This document shows, in pieces, positions 51,145 through 62,057 of a stretch of 64,000 nucleotides of DNA. The notes beneath the pieces were generated by a model, which was not told where the DNA came from, did no database searches, and worked only from the letters and a program-made list of their open reading frames with translations. Within the stretch, counting starts at the first letter, position 1; the number at the start of each line of letters is the position of its first letter. Location of the stretch: the NCBI GenBank assembly GCA_963666565.1, contig OY762911.1, positions 1,600,001 through 1,664,000 on the forward strand. The letters run 5' to 3'. Source of the stretch: Thermoanaerobaculia bacterium (GTDB lineage: Bacteria > Acidobacteriota > Thermoanaerobaculia > Multivoradales > Multivoraceae). Made by a program: the position numbers and the translations under genes.

Positions 51145-51876
51145 ATGGCTGCATCGACCTCTTCGAACCCCGCCACCAGGATGGGAGGGCTGGCTCTGCT
51201 CGTCGGAGTCGTTCTGCTGTTTGTCGCATCGTTCCTCCTTCCCGGGGGCGTGCTCAACCCGGTGGACCAGACCGACTTCCCTCTGGCCCTTGAGACGATG
51301 GCCGCGAACGCCAGCGCCGCGCATCTGGCGTCGATGCTGTCGATCGGCGGGATGTTCCTCTACATGTACGCCGCCTCCACGTGGCTCCGCCTGCCCGGAA
51401 CGACCGGGTTCGGCGGCGCCTGCCTGCGGTTGGGGGCGTTCGCGAGCATGTTCGGCTGGAGCCTCTACCTCGTCGCGATGGGCATGAGGCAGTTCAGCGT
51501 CCACCTGATGCAGCGCGGCATGCAGCCCGGCGCCGATCAGGCCATGCTGGAGTCCTTCGCCCTCAGCGCCTACGCGGCGATGGCCGGCATCGTTGTGGCG
51601 CTGGTCAGCGTCTATCCGCTCGCGTCCATCCTGGTCGGCATCGGCCTTGCCTCGCGTTTCGACTCGGTGGGCCTCTTCAAGGTGGCCTCCTGCGGCTTCG
51701 TCGTTCTCGGGGTCGTGGCAAGCATCAACCACATGGTCCTTCAGCACGTCCCCACGATCGATCCCAGGGTTCTCCTGGTGAACGACAACGGCATGCAAGC
51801 GCTCGGGTCGCTCTGCTTCGTCATCATCGGGATCGGGATGTACCGCGGCAGGAGCGAACTCACCTCGGAGGACTGA
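51145..51876 (+). CDS. Hypothetical multi-pass membrane protein
   Basis: About six TM segments; AAGGA SD. Confidence 0.7.
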   Translation: MAASTSSNPATRMGGLALLVGVVLLFVASFLLPGGVLNPVDQTDFPLALETMAANASAAHLASMLSIGGMFLYMYAASTWLRLPGTTGFGGACLRLGAFASMFGWSLYLVAMGMRQFSVHLMQRGMQPGADQAMLESFALSAYAAMAGIVVALVSVYPLASILVGIGLASRFDSVGLFKVASCGFVVLGVVASINHMVLQHVPTIDPRVLLVNDNGMQALGSLCFVIIGIGMYRGRSELTSED

Positions 51877-51936
51877 CCGGCGGCAGGGAGGCGCCGGCCT
51901 CCGGCCGGCGCGTCTTTCCGGCCGCTTCCGGCGGCA

Positions 51937-51960
51937 GCGGGTCGGAAGACCCGCGCACCC
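51937..51960 (-). repeat. REP copy, inverted relative to a degenerate copy at 51028
   Basis: Exact reverse complement of the 24-mer. Confidence 0.85.
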
Positions 51961-51997
51961 GGCGGAAGGCCCGCGCCACTCCGGTCGCGGAGCCTGC

Positions 51998-52026
51998 TTG
52001 ACACTCCGTGCCTTCCGGTGCAGTAT
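51998..52026 (+). promoter_or_regulatory. Sigma70-like promoter of the aro-his-trp leader
   Basis: TTGACA-N17-CAGTAT. Confidence 0.6.
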
Positions 52027-52071
52027 GCGCGCTCCTGGAGCCGTTCCGACCCGTTCCGCCTTCGCCTCGTC

Positions 52072-52176
52072 ATGAACTCACCGGCCAGCACTCCCGCGTT
52101 CGTCGCCGCCTCCGTCGCTTCGGCGACCGGCGTCGTCACGGCTTCCTGGTGGGCTCACGGTCACGGCAAGGGCTGA
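52072..52176 (+). CDS. Leader peptide MNSPASTPAFVAASVASATGVVTASWWAHGHGKG
   Basis: TGG TGG then CAC GGT CAC just before the stop; lies upstream of a terminator and the his/trp genes. Confidence 0.75.
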   Translation: MNSPASTPAFVAASVASATGVVTASWWAHGHGKG

Positions 52177-52220
52177 ACCGGGGTCAGGTCCCGGTACGCG
52201 GTCCGGGACGAGGGCGAGCG

Positions 52221-52258
52221 AAAGACCTCCTTCCGGATCGAAGGAGGTCTTTTCGTTT
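52221..52258 (+). terminator. Attenuator terminator / SD-sequestering hairpin
   Basis: AAAGACCTCCTTC-cggatc-GAAGGAGGTCTTT then TCGTTT; 3' arm contains AAGGAGG. Confidence 0.8.
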
Positions 52259-53768
52259 GAGTTCGACAACCGAGAATCCGCCGCGAGCCACCCTGGTGGC
52301 GTCGCTGACCGAGGCGCCCGGCGCGTCCGGCGACGAGGTGCGCGCTCTCTCGGAACAGGCGGACTGCCTGGAGGTGCGAGCGGACCTGGTCGGCGAAGTC
52401 GGCGTCGAGTGGTTGCGGGAGCGGTTCGCGGGCGAGCTCCTCTACACGCTGCGGAGCGAGGCGGAAGGCGGTCGCGGGCCGGTCGAGCCGGAGCGCCGCG
52501 CGGCGCTGCTCTCGGCGGCCCGCGGCTACGACCTGGTCGACATCGAGGCGGACCGCGACCTGGGCAGGACCGTCCTGGACGCGGTCGAACCGGGACGACG
52601 CGTCGTTTCCTGGCACGGGCGGGCCGGAGACGTGAAGGCCCTGCGGGGCCGCCTGAGGCAGGTTTCCGGGGTCGAGGCGCGGCTCTGCAAGCTGGTCGCC
52701 GCCGCGGAGAACTCCGGCGAGGAGCTGGCGCCGCTGGAACTGCTGCTCGAGGAGGGCCGGGAGGACGTCGCGGCCTTCTCGATGGGCGCCGTCGGCGCCT
52801 GGACCCGGCTGGTGGCGCCTCGCTTCGGCGCGCCGTGGATCTACGGCGCCGCGGGGCCGCTCGCCGCCGCGCCCGGCCAGCCGTCCATCGAACGGCTGCG
52901 GGCCGACTACGACCTGCCGCGCCTGCATTGGGCCAGACGGCTGTTCGGCGTCGTCGGCCACCCGACGGCGCACAGCCTGTCGCCCAGGCTGCACAACGCC
53001 GGCTATCGGGACCGGGGCGAGGAGGCGCTCTACGTCGCCTTCGACGCGCCGTCGTTCGAAGAGTTCTGGAGCGAGGTCGCGCGAAGCGACTTCTTCGACC
53101 GCGCGGGCCTGCCCCTGGGAGGCCTGAGCGTCACCGCGCCGCACAAGGCGGCTGCGCTGGCGGCGGCGTCGGAGGCCGGTGACCTGGCGGTGCGCACGGC
53201 GGGCGCGAACACCCTGCTCCCCGGCGCCGGCGAGGCGGCCGGGAGGCCGTGGCGGGCCGAGAGCACCGACCCGGAAGGGGTCGCGGGTCCGCTCCTGCGC
53301 CGCGGCATCGACCTGGCGGGCCGGCCGGCGGCGGTCATCGGCGCCGGCGGGGCCGGGCGTGCGGCCGCCGCCGGTCTCGCCGCGGCGGGCGCCGAAGTCG
53401 CGCTCGCCAACCGCACGGAGTCGACCGGCCGGGCGGCCGCCTCGTCGCTCGGCGTCGCCTTCGTGCCGCTCGATGAACTGGAACCGGGCGCCTTCGACAT
53501 TGTGGTCAACGCCACCTCGCTCGGCGGGCGGCCCGGCGATCCGCTGCCCTGCGACCCGGCGGCGGTCCGTCCCGCGGCGGCCGCGGTCGAGCTGGTCTAC
53601 GGCGGCGGCCCGACGCCCTGGGGCCGGGCGCTCGCGGACCGGGGCGTCGCCGTGGTCGACGGCCGGGAAGTGCTGCTGCATCAGGGACTGGCGCAGTTCG
53701 AGGCGATGACGGGGAAGGACCTGCCCTTCGAGGTCGGCGCAGCGGCCCTGGGTCTGGAGGCGCGATGA
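52257..53768 (+). CDS. aroE: Bifunctional type I 3-dehydroquinate dehydratase / shikimate dehydrogenase (AroD-AroE)
   Basis: LYTLRS.EGG, VSWH, CKL; HSLSP..HN, SVTAPHK, GAGGAG; TTG at 52257 after AAGGAGG. Confidence 0.88.
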   Translation: MSSTTENPPRATLVASLTEAPGASGDEVRALSEQADCLEVRADLVGEVGVEWLRERFAGELLYTLRSEAEGGRGPVEPERRAALLSAARGYDLVDIEADRDLGRTVLDAVEPGRRVVSWHGRAGDVKALRGRLRQVSGVEARLCKLVAAAENSGEELAPLELLLEEGREDVAAFSMGAVGAWTRLVAPRFGAPWIYGAAGPLAAAPGQPSIERLRADYDLPRLHWARRLFGVVGHPTAHSLSPRLHNAGYRDRGEEALYVAFDAPSFEEFWSEVARSDFFDRAGLPLGGLSVTAPHKAAALAAASEAGDLAVRTAGANTLLPGAGEAAGRPWRAESTDPEGVAGPLLRRGIDLAGRPAAVIGAGGAGRAAAAGLAAAGAEVALANRTESTGRAAASSLGVAFVPLDELEPGAFDIVVNATSLGGRPGDPLPCDPAAVRPAAAAVELVYGGGPTPWGRALADRGVAVVDGREVLLHQGLAQFEAMTGKDLPFEVGAAALGLEAR

Positions 53769-54832
53769 AGATCTCCGCGGGCCTGCCGACCGGAGTGTCG
53801 GCCGCTCTCTTCGACAGCGCCAGGCGGCGCCGGCGCCTGGAGGCGCGCCTTTCGGGTCTGCTGGAGGAACGCGGCTTCGCCGAGGTCCTGCTGCCCATCC
53901 TCGACTACTTCGAACCGTACCGGCCGTTGCTGACGGGCCGGCGGCTGGAGCAGCTCTACCGCTTCGTCGACCGGGACGGTCAACTGCTCGTCCTGCGCGG
54001 CGACTTCACGCCGATGCTGGCGCGGCTGCTGGCGCCGCACCTCGACGAACTGGAGTTGCCGCTGCGCCTCTACTACCGGGGCGATGTCGTGCGGCACCAG
54101 CCGCTGCGTCCGGGCCGGATGCGCGAGTACTCCCAGTTGGGCGCCGAACTGCTCGGCGGCGACGAGGCCGAGGCGGACGAGGGGATGCTGACGCTGTTCC
54201 TCGACCTGCTGCTCGAGGCGCGGGGCGCCGAAGGGGACGCTCTGTCGGGAACCGGCGCGGGAAGCCAGCCAGAAGGCCGATGCACCGACAGTGAGTCTGA
54301 GGCCGAGCGCACTGGCGAGGACGCGGCGCTTCGGGTCGTGCTCGGCGCGGCGGGAGCGCTCGACGAGGCCCTTCTGGCTGCCGGCGAGCAAGAAGCCTCC
54401 GACCTTGCGTTGCGGATCGCCAGCCGCGACCGGGCCGCGGCGCGCCGGGCCGGCCTGGCCGAGGTCGTCGAACGCGGCTACCCGTCCGACCTCTCCGTTC
54501 TGGGCGAGGCCGCCGGCGCGGTGTCCGAGCTGGTCGCCCTGCGCGACCGACTGGCCGCCGCGTACCGGTCCCGCGGCATCGAGATCGAGGTCGACCTCGC
54601 CGAGTTCGCCGCCGCCGCGCTCGACAGGCGCATCGGCGTGGCCGCGGGTCCGCGCGGCTACTACGACGGCCTGATGTTCGCGGCCTACGCGCCGGGGACG
54701 GCCCTGGCCCTCGGCGTCGGCGGCCGCTACGACCGGGTGTTCCGCTCGCTCAGCGGCGACTGCTCCGCGGTCGGCTTCTCGTTCGGCCTCGATCTGCTGC
54801 TGGAACTCGGCGCCGCGGAGGCGCGGTCATGA
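53765..54832 (+). CDS. hisZ: ATP phosphoribosyltransferase regulatory subunit
   Basis: HisRS-like LRGDFT, RLYY.G, QLGAEL, YYDG, GGRYD. Confidence 0.9.
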   Translation: MKISAGLPTGVSAALFDSARRRRRLEARLSGLLEERGFAEVLLPILDYFEPYRPLLTGRRLEQLYRFVDRDGQLLVLRGDFTPMLARLLAPHLDELELPLRLYYRGDVVRHQPLRPGRMREYSQLGAELLGGDEAEADEGMLTLFLDLLLEARGAEGDALSGTGAGSQPEGRCTDSESEAERTGEDAALRVVLGAAGALDEALLAAGEQEASDLALRIASRDRAAARRAGLAEVVERGYPSDLSVLGEAAGAVSELVALRDRLAAAYRSRGIEIEVDLAEFAAAALDRRIGVAAGPRGYYDGLMFAAYAPGTALALGVGGRYDRVFRSLSGDCSAVGFSFGLDLLLELGAAEARS

Positions 54833-54912
54833 TCGCGTTCCGCATGTCGCCCGGCTTCTCGTTCGGTCTCGATCGTCTGCTCGAACCTGGGACGGCGGAG
54901 GCACGGTCATGA
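54829..54912 (+). CDS. Putative 27-aa relay mini-ORF formed by an 80-bp junction duplication
   Basis: MIAFRMSPGFSFGLDRLLEPGTAEARS; ATGA overlaps with the hisZ stop and the hisG start. Confidence 0.4.
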   Translation: MIAFRMSPGFSFGLDRLLEPGTAEARS

Positions 54913-55547
54913 TCGCGTTCGGTCTTCCGAAGGGGCGCAACCTCGGTCCGGCGCGCGCCGCCCTCTCGGCCGCGGGGCTCAACCTCGACGGTCTCGGTTC
55001 CTCGCGGCTGCGCCAACGGTTTCCCGATCAGTACGTGCTGGAGACGCCGGTCGAGGTGTTGCTGCTCAAGGACTGGGACCTGCCGCTCTACGTCGAGCAT
55101 GGGATCGTCGACTGCGCGATCGTCGGTTCGGACGTGCTCGAGGAAACGCAGCCCGACGTCTTCCGGCCGCTCCAACTGCGTGACGGCAGGAGCCGCCTGT
55201 CCCTGATCGCCGAAACGCCCGGCCTGCCGAAGCGGAGCGGCCAGCTCCGGGCGGCGACCCGCTATCCGGCCTGGGCCGCGCGGCTGCTGGCTGAGCGAAA
55301 CCTCCACGTCGAGGTGATCCACCTGACCAGTTCGATCGAACTCGGCCCGCTGCTCGACCTGACGGACGTGGCGGTAGACATCGTGCAGACCGGCGGCACG
55401 CTGCGAGCCCACGACCTGCACGAAGTCGAGGTGCTGGCGGAGGTGGCGCCGACTTTCGTCGTCAACCGGGCCTCGTTCCACGCCCACCGGCGCCGCCTGA
55501 GCCGGCTGCTCGGCGCGCTCGAAGAACGGGAGGCGGGCGATGACTGA
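54909..55547 (+). CDS. hisG: ATP phosphoribosyltransferase, short form
   Basis: LPKGR, ATRYP and DIVQTGGTL. Confidence 0.93.
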   Translation: MIAFGLPKGRNLGPARAALSAAGLNLDGLGSSRLRQRFPDQYVLETPVEVLLLKDWDLPLYVEHGIVDCAIVGSDVLEETQPDVFRPLQLRDGRSRLSLIAETPGLPKRSGQLRAATRYPAWAARLLAERNLHVEVIHLTSSIELGPLLDLTDVAVDIVQTGGTLRAHDLHEVEVLAEVAPTFVVNRASFHAHRRRLSRLLGALEEREAGDD

Positions 55548-57195
55548 GTCGCGTTCCGGTGTGCCTGAGGCGGTGGAGGCTGGCATGGCCAAGGCGCCTT
55601 CCGCGCCTGAAGAAGCGGAGGCCGGCGTGGCCAGCGTGCGCTCCGGCGTGCTTCGGGTGCTCGCCGCCGGAGGTCCGGCCGGCCGGGAGCGGCTGGAACT
55701 CCTCGACCGGCGGGGCCGCGGCGGCATCGCCGCGGAGATCCGCCAGACGGCCGCCGAGATCGTCGACTGCGTACGCGCCGGCGGCGACGCCGCCCTGCTC
55801 GAAGCGGTCGCCCGCTTCGACGGCTACCAGGCGGAGACGGCGGATTCCGCTACGGTGGAACGGGCTGCCCGCTGGGTGCGCGGGTCTTCCGACCCGCTGC
55901 CGCCGGAGGCGGCGGAAGTACGCACCGCCCGGAAGGCCGGCGCCGCTCTCGTCGCCGGCCTTCGGCCGGCGGCCCTGTCGTCCGGGCTCGGCCGCTCCGC
56001 AGCGCCGCCCGTGAGCGGGTCGGAAGACCCGCGCACCCAGCGGGCGGCCCGTTCGATGGAAGCGCGGTCGGCCACGGCGCTGCGCCTGACCGGCGGCGGC
56101 GACGCCGGCGACGAAGTCGCGCCCTCCGTCCTCGCCGCCATCGACCGGGCCCGGGACGCGATCGAGACTTGGCATCGCGCCCTGCTGCGCGGCTCCGGCG
56201 TCGAACGCGTCGAGCGCGACGGCGTCACGATCGAGGAGCGCCGAATCGCCATTCGCCGCGTCGGCCTCTACGTGCCGGGCGGCCGCTTCCCCTATCCCTC
56301 GACCGTGCTGATGACCGCGATACCAGCGCGGCTCGCCGGCGTGGAGGAGATCGTCGTCGCCACGCCGCCCCGGGCGTATCTGGAGAGCCCGGTGCTGCGG
56401 CACGTCCTGGACCTCGCCGGAGTCGACGAGGTGTGGGGCATGGGCGGCGCCCACGCGGTCGCGGCGCTTGCCTACGGCACGGAGTCGATCCGCCCCGTCG
56501 ACCTGATCGCGGGACCGGGCAACGCCTGGGTCGCGGCCGCCAAGCAGCATGTCGCCTCGGACGTCGGCGTCGACCGGGACGCCGGGCCGTCCGAGGTCGT
56601 CGTCGTCGCCACCGCGGGCGCGCCGGCGGAGTGCGTCGCCGCCGACCTGCTGGCGCAGGCGGAGCACGACCCGCTGGCGGTCGCCGTCCTGGTCACCGAC
56701 TCCGCCGACCTTGCCGCCCGCGTCGCCGCGGAAGTCGACCGGCAACTCGCCGGCCTGCCGACGGCGGAGACTGCGGCCGCGGCTCTGGATCGCCACGGCG
56801 CGGCCTTCGTCGCCGCCGACTTGGACGAGGCGCTCGCGCTCGCCGAGCGCATCGCCCCGGAGCACCTGCAGTTGATCGGCGGCGCCGCCGAGGCGCGCGC
56901 GGGCGAGCTCCGCAACGCCGGCGCCGTGTTCGTCGGCGCGTCGTCGCCGGTCGCGTTCGGGGACTACGTCGCCGGCCCCAGCCACGTCCTGCCGACGGGC
57001 GGCAGCGCGCGCTTCTCCTCCGGCCTCGGCACGGACGACTTCCTGCGCCGCAGCCACACCGTCCGCTTCTCGGACGAGGCCGCGGCGGCCTGGGCCGGCG
57101 CGGTCGAGACCCTGGCGACCACGGAGGGGCTCGCCGCCCACGCGGCGGCCGCGCGGTTGCGCCGCGAGTCCGGCGACCGGGAGGCCGCGCCATGA
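55540..57195 (+). CDS. hisD: Histidinol dehydrogenase with an in-frame REP insertion
   Basis: GLYVPGG, GPGN, AGPSE, QAEH, PEHL and GPSHVLPT. Confidence 0.93.
   Translation: MTESRSGVPEAVEAGMAKAPSAPEEAEAGVASVRSGVLRVLAAGGPAGRERLELLDRRGRGGIAAEIRQTAAEIVDCVRAGGDAALLEAVARFDGYQAETADSATVERAARWVRGSSDPLPPEAAEVRTARKAGAALVAGLRPAALSSGLGRSAAPPVSGSEDPRTQRAARSMEARSATALRLTGGGDAGDEVAPSVLAAIDRARDAIETWHRALLRGSGVERVERDGVTIEERRIAIRRVGLYVPGGRFPYPSTVLMTAIPARLAGVEEIVVATPPRAYLESPVLRHVLDLAGVDEVWGMGGAHAVAALAYGTESIRPVDLIAGPGNAWVAAAKQHVASDVGVDRDAGPSEVVVVATAGAPAECVAADLLAQAEHDPLAVAVLVTDSADLAARVAAEVDRQLAGLPTAETAAAALDRHGAAFVAADLDEALALAERIAPEHLQLIGGAAEARAGELRNAGAVFVGASSPVAFGDYVAGPSHVLPTGGSARFSSGLGTDDFLRRSHTVRFSDEAAAAWAGAVETLATTEGLAAHAAAARLRRESGDREAAP
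55858..56054. repeat. Inverted REP doublet (REPIN-like) inside hisD
   Basis: REP at 55874 (+) and 56015-56038 (-); arms extend about 16 bp outward. Confidence 0.85.
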
Positions 57196-59718: not shown

Positions 59719-60493
59719 CCTGCGGCGCGGCCAGGTCGTGCGCCTTATGCGCGGCGACGACGCCCGCCGCACGGTCTACGACGCCGACCCGGGCGCCGCT
59801 CTCCGCCGCTACCGCGAGGCGGGGGTGGCCCGCGTCCACGTCGTCGACCTGGACGCGGCGTTCGGCGGCCCGCCGCAGCGCGGCGTCGTCGAAAGACTCG
59901 CGCGGCAGGCGCCGGCCGCCGCAGGAAAGGGGTCCAAGGCTGACGTGGAAGCGCGGACGTCCAGTTCGCCGTCCGGGGCGGCGCCGCGGGCCGGCATCCA
60001 GCTCGGCGGCGGCCTGCGCGACCGCGAGGCGGTGGAGTGGGCCTTCGCGGCCGGCTGCGAACGGGCCGTCGCGACCTCGCTCGTCGTGCGCGACTTCGAC
60101 GCGTTCGCAGACCTCTGCGGTGACTACCCGGGCCGCATGGTAGCGGCGCTCGACATGGACGGCGGCGAGGTCCGCCTTGCCGGCTGGACCGAGTCGGCCG
60201 ACCGTTCGCCGGCGGCGCTCTGCGCGCAACTCGCCGGCCTGCCGATCGCCGCCGTGCTCGTGACCGACATTTCGCGGGACGGGATGATGCAGGGCCCGAA
60301 CATCGACCTCGCCTGCCGGATCGGCGACCTGGCCGGAGCGCCGGCGATCCTCTCCGGCGGCGTCCGCTCGGCGGCCGATCTCGAAGCCGCGGCGCGGCGG
60401 CCCGAACTCGAAGCCGCGATCGTCGGCCGTGCGCTCTACGACGGTTCGCTCAGCCTGAACGAGGCAATTGCAGCCTGCGGGAGCTCGCCGTGA
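59696..60493 (+). CDS. hisA: ProFAR isomerase
   Basis: [18 protein letters not shown] and TDISRDG. Confidence 0.93.
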
Positions 60494-61299
60494 GAGCCAC
60501 CATCGAGCCGACCGGCCTGACCCGCCGGATCATCCCGTGCCTCGACGTCGCCGCCGGCCGCGTCGTCAAGGGCGTCCAGTTCAAGAACCTGACCGACCAC
60601 GGCGACCCGACCGAGGCGGCGGCGCGCTACGCCGCCGAGGGCGCCGACGAGATCGTCTTCCTGGACATTATGGCCGCGCCCGAGCGCCGCGACACGGACC
60701 TGGACTGGGTGCGGCGGACGGCCGAGCAGGTGTTCATCCCTCTGAGCGTCGCCGGCGGGGTGCGCAGCGTCGAGGATGGCCGGAAGCTGCTCCTGGCTGG
60801 CGCCGACAAGCTGGGGATCAACACGGCCGCGGTCGCCGAGCCGGAACTGCTGACCCGCCTCGCCGAACGCTTCGGCAGCCAGTGCGTCGTGCTCCCGGTG
60901 GACGCGAAGCGCCGCGAGGAAGACGGCGCGGACGGCCCGCGCTGGGAGGTCGTCACCCACGGCGGCCGCACGCCTACCGGACTCGACGCGCTCGAGTGGA
61001 TCGAGGCCGGCATCGAGCGCGGCGCCGGCGAGATCCTGCTCACCAGCATCGACAGCGACGGCACGAAGGAGGGCTACGACCTGGAACTGCTGCGCCGGGC
61101 CTCGGCGCTCTCGCCCGTGCCGGTCATCGCCTCCGGCGGCGCCGGTACGCTGGAGCACTTGGCCGACGCGCTCGAGACCGGCGCCGCCGCGGTGCTTGCC
61201 GCCTCGATCTTCCACCAGTCGACCTACTCGGTCGGCGCGGTCAAGGACTACCTCGGCCGGCGCTACCCGATCCGCCTTGAGACAGGAGAGAACACGTGA
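60490..61299 (+). CDS. hisF: Imidazole glycerol phosphate synthase, cyclase subunit
   Basis: [12 protein letters not shown] and [10 protein letters not shown]. Confidence 0.96.
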
Positions 61300-62057
61300 C
61301 GGAAGCGACGATCGACCCCGCGGCCCTCACCTACGACGACCGCGGCCTGCTGCCCGTCGTGGTCCAGGACGTGCTCTCGGGCGCGGTGCTCATGCTCGCC
61401 TACGCGAACCGCGAGGCGGTGGAACTGACGCTCGCCACGGGTCAGGCCCACTTCTTCAGCCGCTCCCGCCAGGAGCTCTGGCGCAAGGGCGCCACCTCGG
61501 GCAACACGCTGGCCGTGGTCGAGGTGCTCCAGGACTGCGACCGGGACGCGCTGCTGGTGCGGGCGCTGCCGGCGGGGCCGGCGTGCCACAACTACACGCG
61601 GAGTTGCTTCGAGCCGAACGTGGCCGAGTTCGAGCTCGGCTGGCTGGCGCACATCCTCGCCGAGCGCGCCTCCGCGCCGCCGGAGGAGAGCTACACCGCG
61701 CGCTTGGTCGGCCAGGGCGTGGACCGGATCGCCCGCAAGGTCGCGGAGGAGGCGGGGGAGACCGTGATCGCCGGGGTGCGCGCCGACGCCGAGCCCGGGT
61801 CGGTAGAACGCCGCGACGATCTGGCCGCCGAGACCGCCGACCTCGCGTACCACCTGCTGGTCCTGCTCCAGGCCACCGGTGTCGAACTCGCCGACGTGGC
61901 CGCCGAACTTGGACGGCGCCACCAGGAAGCGCGGGGAACCGGCCGTGCGCCGGGTCCGCCGGCGTCCGCATCGGCTACCGGATGCGGGTCGGAAGACCCG
62001 CGCACCCGGCGCGCGCGGCGGCAGGTTGCGGGCAAGACCGGGAAGGAGCCGTCATGA
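61296..62057 (+). CDS. hisIE: Bifunctional PR-AMP cyclohydrolase / PR-ATP pyrophosphatase
   Basis: [16 protein letters not shown]; [16 protein letters not shown]. Confidence 0.93.
61984..62007 (-). repeat. REP copy in the hisIE 3' extension
   Basis: Exact reverse complement; translated as GSEDPRT. Confidence 0.85.

Follow-up and report, generated by a model that had tools for sequence, protein, structure and literature searches.

In the genome of a bacterium of the genus Candidatus Multivorans (Thermoanaerobaculia, Acidobacteriota; assembly GCA_963666565.1), a short open reading frame (ORF) ending in tryptophan (Trp) and histidine (His) codons lies directly upstream of the operon aroDE-hisZGDCBHAFIE-trpEGDCFBA. 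Comparison with related genomes indicates that this ORF is likely the leader of a ribosome-mediated leader-peptide attenuator, which would sense a shortage of charged tRNA-Trp or tRNA-His and control the whole 17-gene aro-his-trp operon. The region belongs to the 64,000-nucleotide (nt) stretch at positions 1,600,001 to 1,664,000 of contig OY762911.1, called the window below; all coordinates are counted from its first letter (Table 1). The 17 co-directional genes of the operon span about 17 kb, are mostly overlapping or tightly spaced, and include a complete his and trp set; a scan inside the gene cluster found no strong terminator-like site.

The leader ORF (MNSPASTPAFVAASVASATGVVTASWWAHGHGKG) carries two Trp and two His codons within its last nine sense codons. 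Of the 93,810 stop-to-stop frames in the genome with 10 codons or more, only 11 have at least two TGG and at least two CAY codons among their last ten, the leader being one of them, and this feature exceeds chance. A sequence-only reading of the window had described promoter boxes of the form TTGACA-N17-CAGTAT, the 34-codon ORF, its Trp and His codons and a downstream terminator hairpin. Direct reading of the sequence bears out the first three, and the hairpin was recovered at 52220-52253, where a scan finds it terminator-like. The same reading proposed that the Trp and His codons of one translated leader gate the combined operon. The comparison strongly supports this proposal in three respects: similar leaders recur among relatives, their codons track the genes of the operon, and the leader follows the his and trp genes.

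Within the genus, where the close relatives are all metagenome-assembled genomes, the DNA at 51990-52400 was matched in all 24 other genomes searched; among genomes of other families, 3 of 16 gave short spurious matches. In an alignment of 20 genus loci, the region from the Trp codons through the hairpin is almost invariant, and the N-terminal two-thirds of the leader is variable. The leader frame is retained in 20/20 loci, including one with an in-frame 24-nt insertion (L013). The full set of two Trp and two His codons occurs in 18/20; the two others have a single Trp codon (L013) or a single His codon (L015). One locus (L020) combines an unrelated N-terminal part, with no in-frame ATG, and an identical leader tail.

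Beyond the genus, an aroDE homologue was found in 60 of the 61 genomes sampled from the order. Among 53 stretches upstream of aroDE in other families of the order, 29 contain an ATG-started short ORF that ends with Trp and then His codons, and 28 of these 29 have the same RNA segments 0-7 nt downstream. In L061 the leader contains Trp codons only, and the RNA is a different one. Examples of leader tails from other families, here and below written up to the stop codon, are …GWHWHAHSKV, …HGWWWHGVHHFGS, …WWGFVHHHVE, …SWRSLVHHHAVD and …SWRWHGHGHHSV. Across families the leader peptides are alike in Trp/His composition and order, and their sequences are otherwise unrelated. In the set of 38 aligned leaders (8 genus representatives and 30 from other families, called far relatives below), at least one Trp codon occurs in the last 11 codons of all 38, and at least two His codons occur in 35, the three exceptions heading operons without his genes. 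Codons for both amino acids are found in 35/38 leaders, which makes these multivalent, and many relatives have runs of three or four His codons.

A covariance model of the leader RNA (R1) gave a single match in the present genome (72.9 bits; the runner-up has E = 0.09). In the rest of the family it matched every genome (23/23), and in a sample of 151 genomes of the class it matched 46. Inspection of 20 class-level matches revealed eight Trp+His leaders, one Trp-only leader, seven Tyr/Phe-rich leaders and four false positives in coding-like DNA; four of the eight Trp+His leaders come from two families missing in the order-level sample (e.g. MIFISRHWHVHHS and …RHHHGWWHHLS). Outside the class, R1 gave three weak matches among 150 genomes across the phylum, none of them a leader, and the model is too specific to claim absence there. 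On this comparison, Trp-then-His leader ORFs recur ahead of the same operon in many families and in at least two other orders of the class.

The codon content of the leader follows the gene content of the operon. Gene order downstream of the leaders was established by tblastn with the proteins of the present operon. All 29 leaders that head operons with his and trp genes (the present genome counted) have at least one Trp and at least two His codons in their tails. Six leader-headed aroDE-trpE… operons are without his genes. Four of their leaders have no His codon (RRWWAYAQPYV in G064, CWWSYAQPYV in G054, AWCWWSMAMNRGAR in G029 and SWWFRRS in G150) and one has a single His codon (WWWRGFVHNRLA in G073); the sixth is an exception with three (RWRSHVHLHGA in G032). 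A Fisher estimate for 29/0 versus 1/5 is about 2e-5, ignoring relatedness; three families (f10, f6 and f14) contain the His-poor cases. In family f10, a genus with his genes in the operon has the tail …WWGFVHHHVE and a genus without them has …WWWRGFVHNRLA, which looks like a His run decaying after the departure of the his genes. In G034 and G076, where aroDE is apart from the his and trp genes, and in G031, where it precedes the element, hisZ directly follows the Trp+His leader. The leaderless loci include stand-alone aroDE genes (G036, G042).

Five segments (a, b, c, T5' and T3') follow the leader stop codon. All contain a CCGG core, and neighbouring segments are mutually complementary, giving the helices a:b, b:c, c:T5' and T5':T3', the last being the terminator. 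Pairing was counted on structure-neutral MAFFT alignments of the 38 sequences. Helix a:b is paired in 91.0% of cells, with three pairs (14 cells) altered on both sides and 0/500 shuffles equal to it; the values for b:c are 98.5%, two pairs (3 cells) and 4/500. Helix c:T5' is paired in 84.4% of cells, with one C.C mismatch in all 38 sequences, and no shuffle out of 500 equalled this percentage. In the terminator helix, 85.8% of cells are paired, 10 of 13 pairs (31 cells) are altered on both sides, and 0/500 shuffles equalled it on all five measures. In a control with slid partners, all four helices peaked at slide 0. In two loci from a single genus (L058 and L081, one event), one position of b changes along with its partners in both a and c, which fits b pairing alternately with a and c.

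The sequence-only reading had drawn a different antiterminator, a pairing of 52178-52190 with 52224-52236. A hand check found it as described (11/13 positions, including two G-U pairs, with two adjacent mismatches), and it is not conserved: the CCGG core is paired in 94% of cells, trivially, the second helix in only 47.9% of cells across the 38 relatives, and 131/500 shuffles reach its covariation score. The alignments support an antiterminator formed by 52203-52213 and 52226-52236 and controlled indirectly through the two upstream segments a and b. In these sequences the alternatives a:b, b:c and c:T5' are all conserved.

These helices suggest a switch with two outcomes. When Trp and His are ample, the ribosome would reach the stop codon and cover segment a. 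Segment b would then pair with c as c emerges, and T5' would be left free to pair with T3', the OFF state; transcription would end in the U-tract that contains the TTG start codon, and read-through mRNA would have a buried Shine-Dalgarno sequence. A ribosome stalled at the Trp codons (7-8 before the stop) or at the His codons (3-5 before the stop) would leave a bare. In that case a:b would form and c would capture T5' before T3' exists, giving the ON state with no terminator and an open Shine-Dalgarno sequence. Since either stall leaves a free, the leader would act as an OR gate, and in this model segment c would serve as both antiterminator and anti-sequestrator.

The spacing of the elements is consistent with this switch. 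Segment a begins 0-7 nt past the stop in 38/38 sequences and often overlaps the last base of the stop codon, so a ribosome at the stop must cover it. In the aligned sequences, the last His codon lies 0-4 codons ahead of the stop and the Trp codons mostly 6-10, with three leaders also having Trp 1-2 codons from the stop; a ribosome stalled at Trp, or at a His codon 3-4 codons ahead of the stop, would leave a bare, and in leaders with their last His at 0-2 codons a 13-nt ribosome mask would still hide part of it. Calculated fold energies in the window are -9.9 kcal/mol for a:b, -13.0 for b:c, -14.7 for c:T5' and -21.5 for the terminator. Before T3' is made and with a free, a:b plus c:T5' reaches -26.2 kcal/mol versus -14.6 for b:c alone; masking a leaves c:T5' (-15.7) almost level with b:c (-14.6), and b:c is transcribed first. 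With T3' present, the minimum is b:c plus the terminator (-36.7 kcal/mol), that is, the full OFF state. A "region 0" in the coding part of the leader, pairing with a when translation is absent, was also sought, and no-ribosome folds gave no consistent pairing.

The 3' arm of the hairpin contains GGAGG at 52243-52247, 9 nt ahead of the aroDE TTG (52257), a feature that went unremarked in the sequence-only reading. In all rows of the 38-sequence alignments, T3' is rich in purines and resembles a Shine-Dalgarno sequence. Past the stem, 6 of 9 nt are U in the present genome; at least 5/9 U is found in 19/30 far relatives and 1/8 genus representatives (20/38 overall). Because the Shine-Dalgarno-like arm is present in every row and the U-rich tail in only 20/38, transcription and translation are probably both gated, with T3' doubling as the Shine-Dalgarno sequence of aroDE. 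Termination may be minor in the genus representatives with a weak U-tract, and the translational part may be dominant in the genus. A purely translational attenuator seems improbable. In this reading the hairpin would only bury the Shine-Dalgarno sequence of aroDE, with no termination by RNA polymerase and with access to the binding site set by the leader ribosome. The position of GGAGG, the character of this arm in all 38 rows, and U-tracts that are poor in 7/8 genus representatives and 11/30 far relatives would favor it. However, the present genome combines its U-rich tail with a 14-pair stem, most far relatives have such a tail as well, and the two levels of control are not mutually exclusive.

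Several observations weigh against the Trp+His attenuator. The last 10 leader codons are invariant in the genus even at third positions, which the model does not explain. No recognisable Shine-Dalgarno sequence was seen ahead of the leader ATG in the present genome by sequence reading. The present leader has only two His codons, split by Gly; classical his leaders have more. Just 3-4 U occur in the 9 nt past the stem in 7/8 genus representatives. In G032 (L056 / L116), three His codons persist ahead of an operon, aroDE-trpEGDCFBA, that lacks the his genes. In the congener G044 the aro-his-trp operon is complete, and G032 may represent a recent loss of his genes to which the leader has yet to adapt. 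Covariation in c:T5' is slight (two pairs, 4 cells altered on both sides; 10/500 shuffles equal the score), since the Shine-Dalgarno sequence constrains both of its sides. Folding with constraints that mimic the ribosome positions, as the sequence-only reading had suggested, gave the predicted helices in part of the set: at equilibrium, with a 13-nt mask and dominance thresholds chosen post hoc, a:b plus c:T5' is dominant under the stalled-ribosome mask in 22/38 sequences and b:c under the ribosome-at-stop mask in 23/38, and in the remainder they are not. With such mixed folds the model depends on co-transcriptional kinetics, and equilibrium folding cannot settle a kinetic switch.

An attenuator in which the TGG codons alone sense starvation and the His codons are incidental is less likely still than the purely translational one. 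It would fit the neighbouring pair of Trp codons in the present leader, an arrangement known from classical trp leaders, the presence of only two, separated His codons, and the His codons retained in G032. Nevertheless, at least two His codons are kept in all his+trp leaders despite unrelated peptides, none or one remains in five of the six his-less cases, and the runs of three or four His codons in many relatives argue against an incidental role.

A riboswitch-like RNA that binds a ligand or protein, with the ORF as a chance open frame in GC-rich DNA, is very unlikely. The invariance of the genus sequence from the Trp codons to the hairpin and the missing Shine-Dalgarno sequence ahead of the leader ATG would fit it, but the variable, ATG-started ORFs always end 0-7 nt before a with a codon content that follows the operon genes, and mutual pairing accounts for all conserved segments. 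An Rfam cmscan of 51500-52800 with E up to 10 also found no leader, T-box or riboswitch family; the seven matches were weak and unrelated (best RNAI, 23.2 bits versus a gathering score of 47, E = 0.11). Just as unlikely is a TnaC-like arrest peptide sensing a free amino acid in the ribosome tunnel instead of tRNA charging: the final nine residues, WWAHGHGKG, do not vary in the genus and are near the stop codon, but across families the Trp/His composition is kept with no peptide motif, the leader peptide gave zero matches in Pfam and NCBIfam, and free-amino-acid sensing would be expected to induce a biosynthetic operon amid product abundance, the wrong sign.

Attenuation by leader peptides is a textbook mechanism, studied chiefly in Proteobacteria and Actinobacteria. 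The short E. coli leader ORF trpL has a pair of neighbouring Trp codons near its stop, and the position of the ribosome picks between exclusive hairpins, one with an intrinsic terminator. The element described here is similar in its adjacent Trp codons near the stop, its terminator and its alternative hairpins, between which the leader is predicted to switch. It differs in having five relay segments rather than four, a T3' arm that is also the first gene's Shine-Dalgarno sequence, and a start codon inside the U-tract; moreover, the leader adds His codons and the operon adds the whole his pathway. Enterobacterial hisL gates the his genes by attenuation through a run of seven His codons, compared with two in the present leader and up to 4-5 in relatives, and Trp codons precede these His codons in every case. 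The Rfam leader families, including Trp_leader and His_leader, were not matched by 51500-52800. The thr and ilv leaders are multivalent, with codons for more than one amino acid, and shortage of any of these relieves termination. Each of those leaders serves a single pathway, connected or branched, to which all of its amino acids belong; here one operon unites two separate pathways, and changes in its gene content are accompanied by changes in the codon set. In translational attenuators of the ermC type, the position of the leader ribosome sets the pairing of the downstream ribosome-binding site in response to drug-stalled ribosomes; the present leader has amino-acid-specific codons instead, and most relatives also have a U-tract terminator.

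Leader-peptide attenuators of Actinobacteria and Firmicutes have been predicted comparatively from conserved short ORFs and terminators (PMC1262725, PMC2965389). They resemble the present case as leader-peptide attenuation outside Proteobacteria, and a Trp+His leader is not described in the portions of these papers that were available. As far as the excerpts of PMC2965389 go, the attenuators predicted in Acidobacteria are almost all without assigned function, and translational attenuators with a Shine-Dalgarno-sequestering hairpin are mentioned. Within the available excerpts of the full-text literature, which leaves most subscription journals and supplements outside its scope and includes PMC4833913 and PMC2965389, neither a Trp+His leader nor attenuation in Thermoanaerobaculia is described. 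Relative to these known cases, the element would differ in its two-pathway codons, the extra relay stage, the ribosome-binding site used as a terminator arm, and its occurrence in Acidobacteria.

The Tyr/Phe-rich leaders matched by R1 belong to another family of the class (L158-L160, L163, L164, L168 and L170; e.g. …RYAYYYGYFT and …NWFYYGYYT). They are followed by a hairpin holding a Shine-Dalgarno sequence and a U-tract, ahead of a DAHP synthase gene (L191:4254-5576(-)). The attenuator design thus appears, by this resemblance, to be reused with different sensing codons before that gene. With moderate confidence, we suggest that Thermoanaerobaculia possess an as yet undescribed modular attenuator platform, a five-segment CCGG relay ending in the first gene's Shine-Dalgarno sequence, whose codons are rewritten with the cargo: Trp and His for aroDE-his-trp, Trp only in the absence of his, and Tyr/Phe before DAHP synthase, the Trp+His version being an OR gate on transcription and translation. 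If this is true, the Trp+His version would be the first demonstrated case of one leader peptide serving as an OR gate for two separate biosynthetic pathways. The relatives form a natural deletion series, and comparative evidence is seldom this direct for the selection of regulatory codons according to the operon's products. The relay, with its extra segment pair and a ribosome-binding site as terminator arm, is compact, covers two control levels and may interest engineers of RNA switches. For annotators, the element supplies both a covariance model and a rule by which unannotated leaders of an uncultured lineage can be found.

Table 1. Features of the attenuator region and of the downstream operon, in window coordinates
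Feature	Position	Strand	Remarks
Promoter-like boxes	51998..52026	+	TTGACA 51998-52003, 17-nt spacer, CAGTAT 52021-52026; direct sequence reading
Leader ORF, 34 codons	52072..52176	+	ATG 52072, TGA 52174-52176; peptide MNSP…SWWAHGHGKG
Two adjacent Trp codons, TGG TGG	52147..52152	+	7-8 codons ahead of stop
Two His codons, CAC GGT CAC	52156..52164	+	CAC 52156-58 and 52162-64; last His 3 codons ahead of stop
Segment a (ACCGGGG)	52177..52183	+	begins 1 nt past stop; partner b; relatives' consensus GGCCGGG
Segment b (GUCCCGGU)	52188..52195	+	alternative partners a or c; relatives' consensus GUCCCGGCC
Segment c (CCGGGACGAGG), Shine-Dalgarno mimic	52203..52213	+	relatives' consensus CCGGGACGAGG; pairs with b via 52203-52209, or with terminator 5' arm 52226-52236
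T5', terminator 5' arm	52220..52233	+	contains anti-Shine-Dalgarno CCUCCUUC; relatives' consensus ACCUCCUUCCGG
Hairpin loop	52234..52239	+	6 nt
T3', terminator 3' arm	52240..52253	+	GGAGG 52243-52247; relatives' consensus CCGGAAGGAGGU, then U-rich, then start codon
Terminator / Shine-Dalgarno-sequestering hairpin	52220..52253	+	14 pairs, tail CGTTTGAGTT; terminator-like in consensus scan
U-rich tract TTTTCGTTTG	52250..52259	+	ends with the aroDE start codon TTG
aroD-aroE fusion (type I dehydroquinase / shikimate dehydrogenase)	52257-53768	+	TTG start; Pfam
hisZ	53765-54832	+	Pfam
hisG	54909-55547	+	Pfam
hisD	to 57195	+	Pfam
hisC	to 58334	+	Pfam
hisB	to 58948	+	Pfam
hisH	to 59718	+	Pfam
hisA	to 60493	+	Pfam
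hisF	60490-61299	+	Pfam
hisIE	61296-62057	+	Pfam
trpE	to 63565	+	Pfam
trpG	extends past window end (64000)	+	Pfam
trpD, trpC, trpF, trpB, trpA	beyond window, to window-equivalent position 69439	+	Pfam

The promoter at 51998-52026 was not called by a consensus scanner, because its -10 box CAGTAT fits TATAAT at only 3/6 positions. Both boxes are identical in 19/20 aligned genus loci, the exception being L020, and a TTGAC-type -35 box lies upstream of the leader ATG in 27/30 far relatives (TTGACA in 25 of these). The distance from TTGACA to the leader ATG is 68 nt in the window. In about 10 of the 30 far relatives (e.g. L056, L057, L059, L064, L069, L073, L086 and L103), the leader ATG is 32-35 nt past TTGACA and 8-10 nt past a TCTAAT/TGTAAT-like -10 box. 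The leader mRNA of these relatives may be leaderless or nearly so, which could account for the absent Shine-Dalgarno sequence. A 16-codon ORF (MRAPGAVPTRSAFASS; window 52025-52075, +) begins beside the -10 box, and its TGA overlaps the leader ATG as ATGA. Its ATG is absent in the other 19 aligned genus loci, and by this comparison it is probably a chance frame.

A second copy of the element in G041 (L173; G041:C1:387430-389213) has a leader (…AQAWWAHGHGKG), the hairpins, and an aroDE broken by stop codons; judged from these lesions, it is a decayed duplicate. In the operon of the window, the open frame of hisD starts at 55540, and its match to Histidinol_dh sets in only at residue 189 (window 55547-55900, +), leaving either an N-terminal extension of about 120 residues or about 350 nt unassigned after hisG. 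The 5' end of aroDE differs among genus relatives: many of them (e.g. L008 and L011-L019) have in-frame inserts of about 27-60 nt just past the start, of which the window has none. The building blocks of these inserts are palindromic GGAGGTCGC…GCGAC units, in some cases repeated two or three times.

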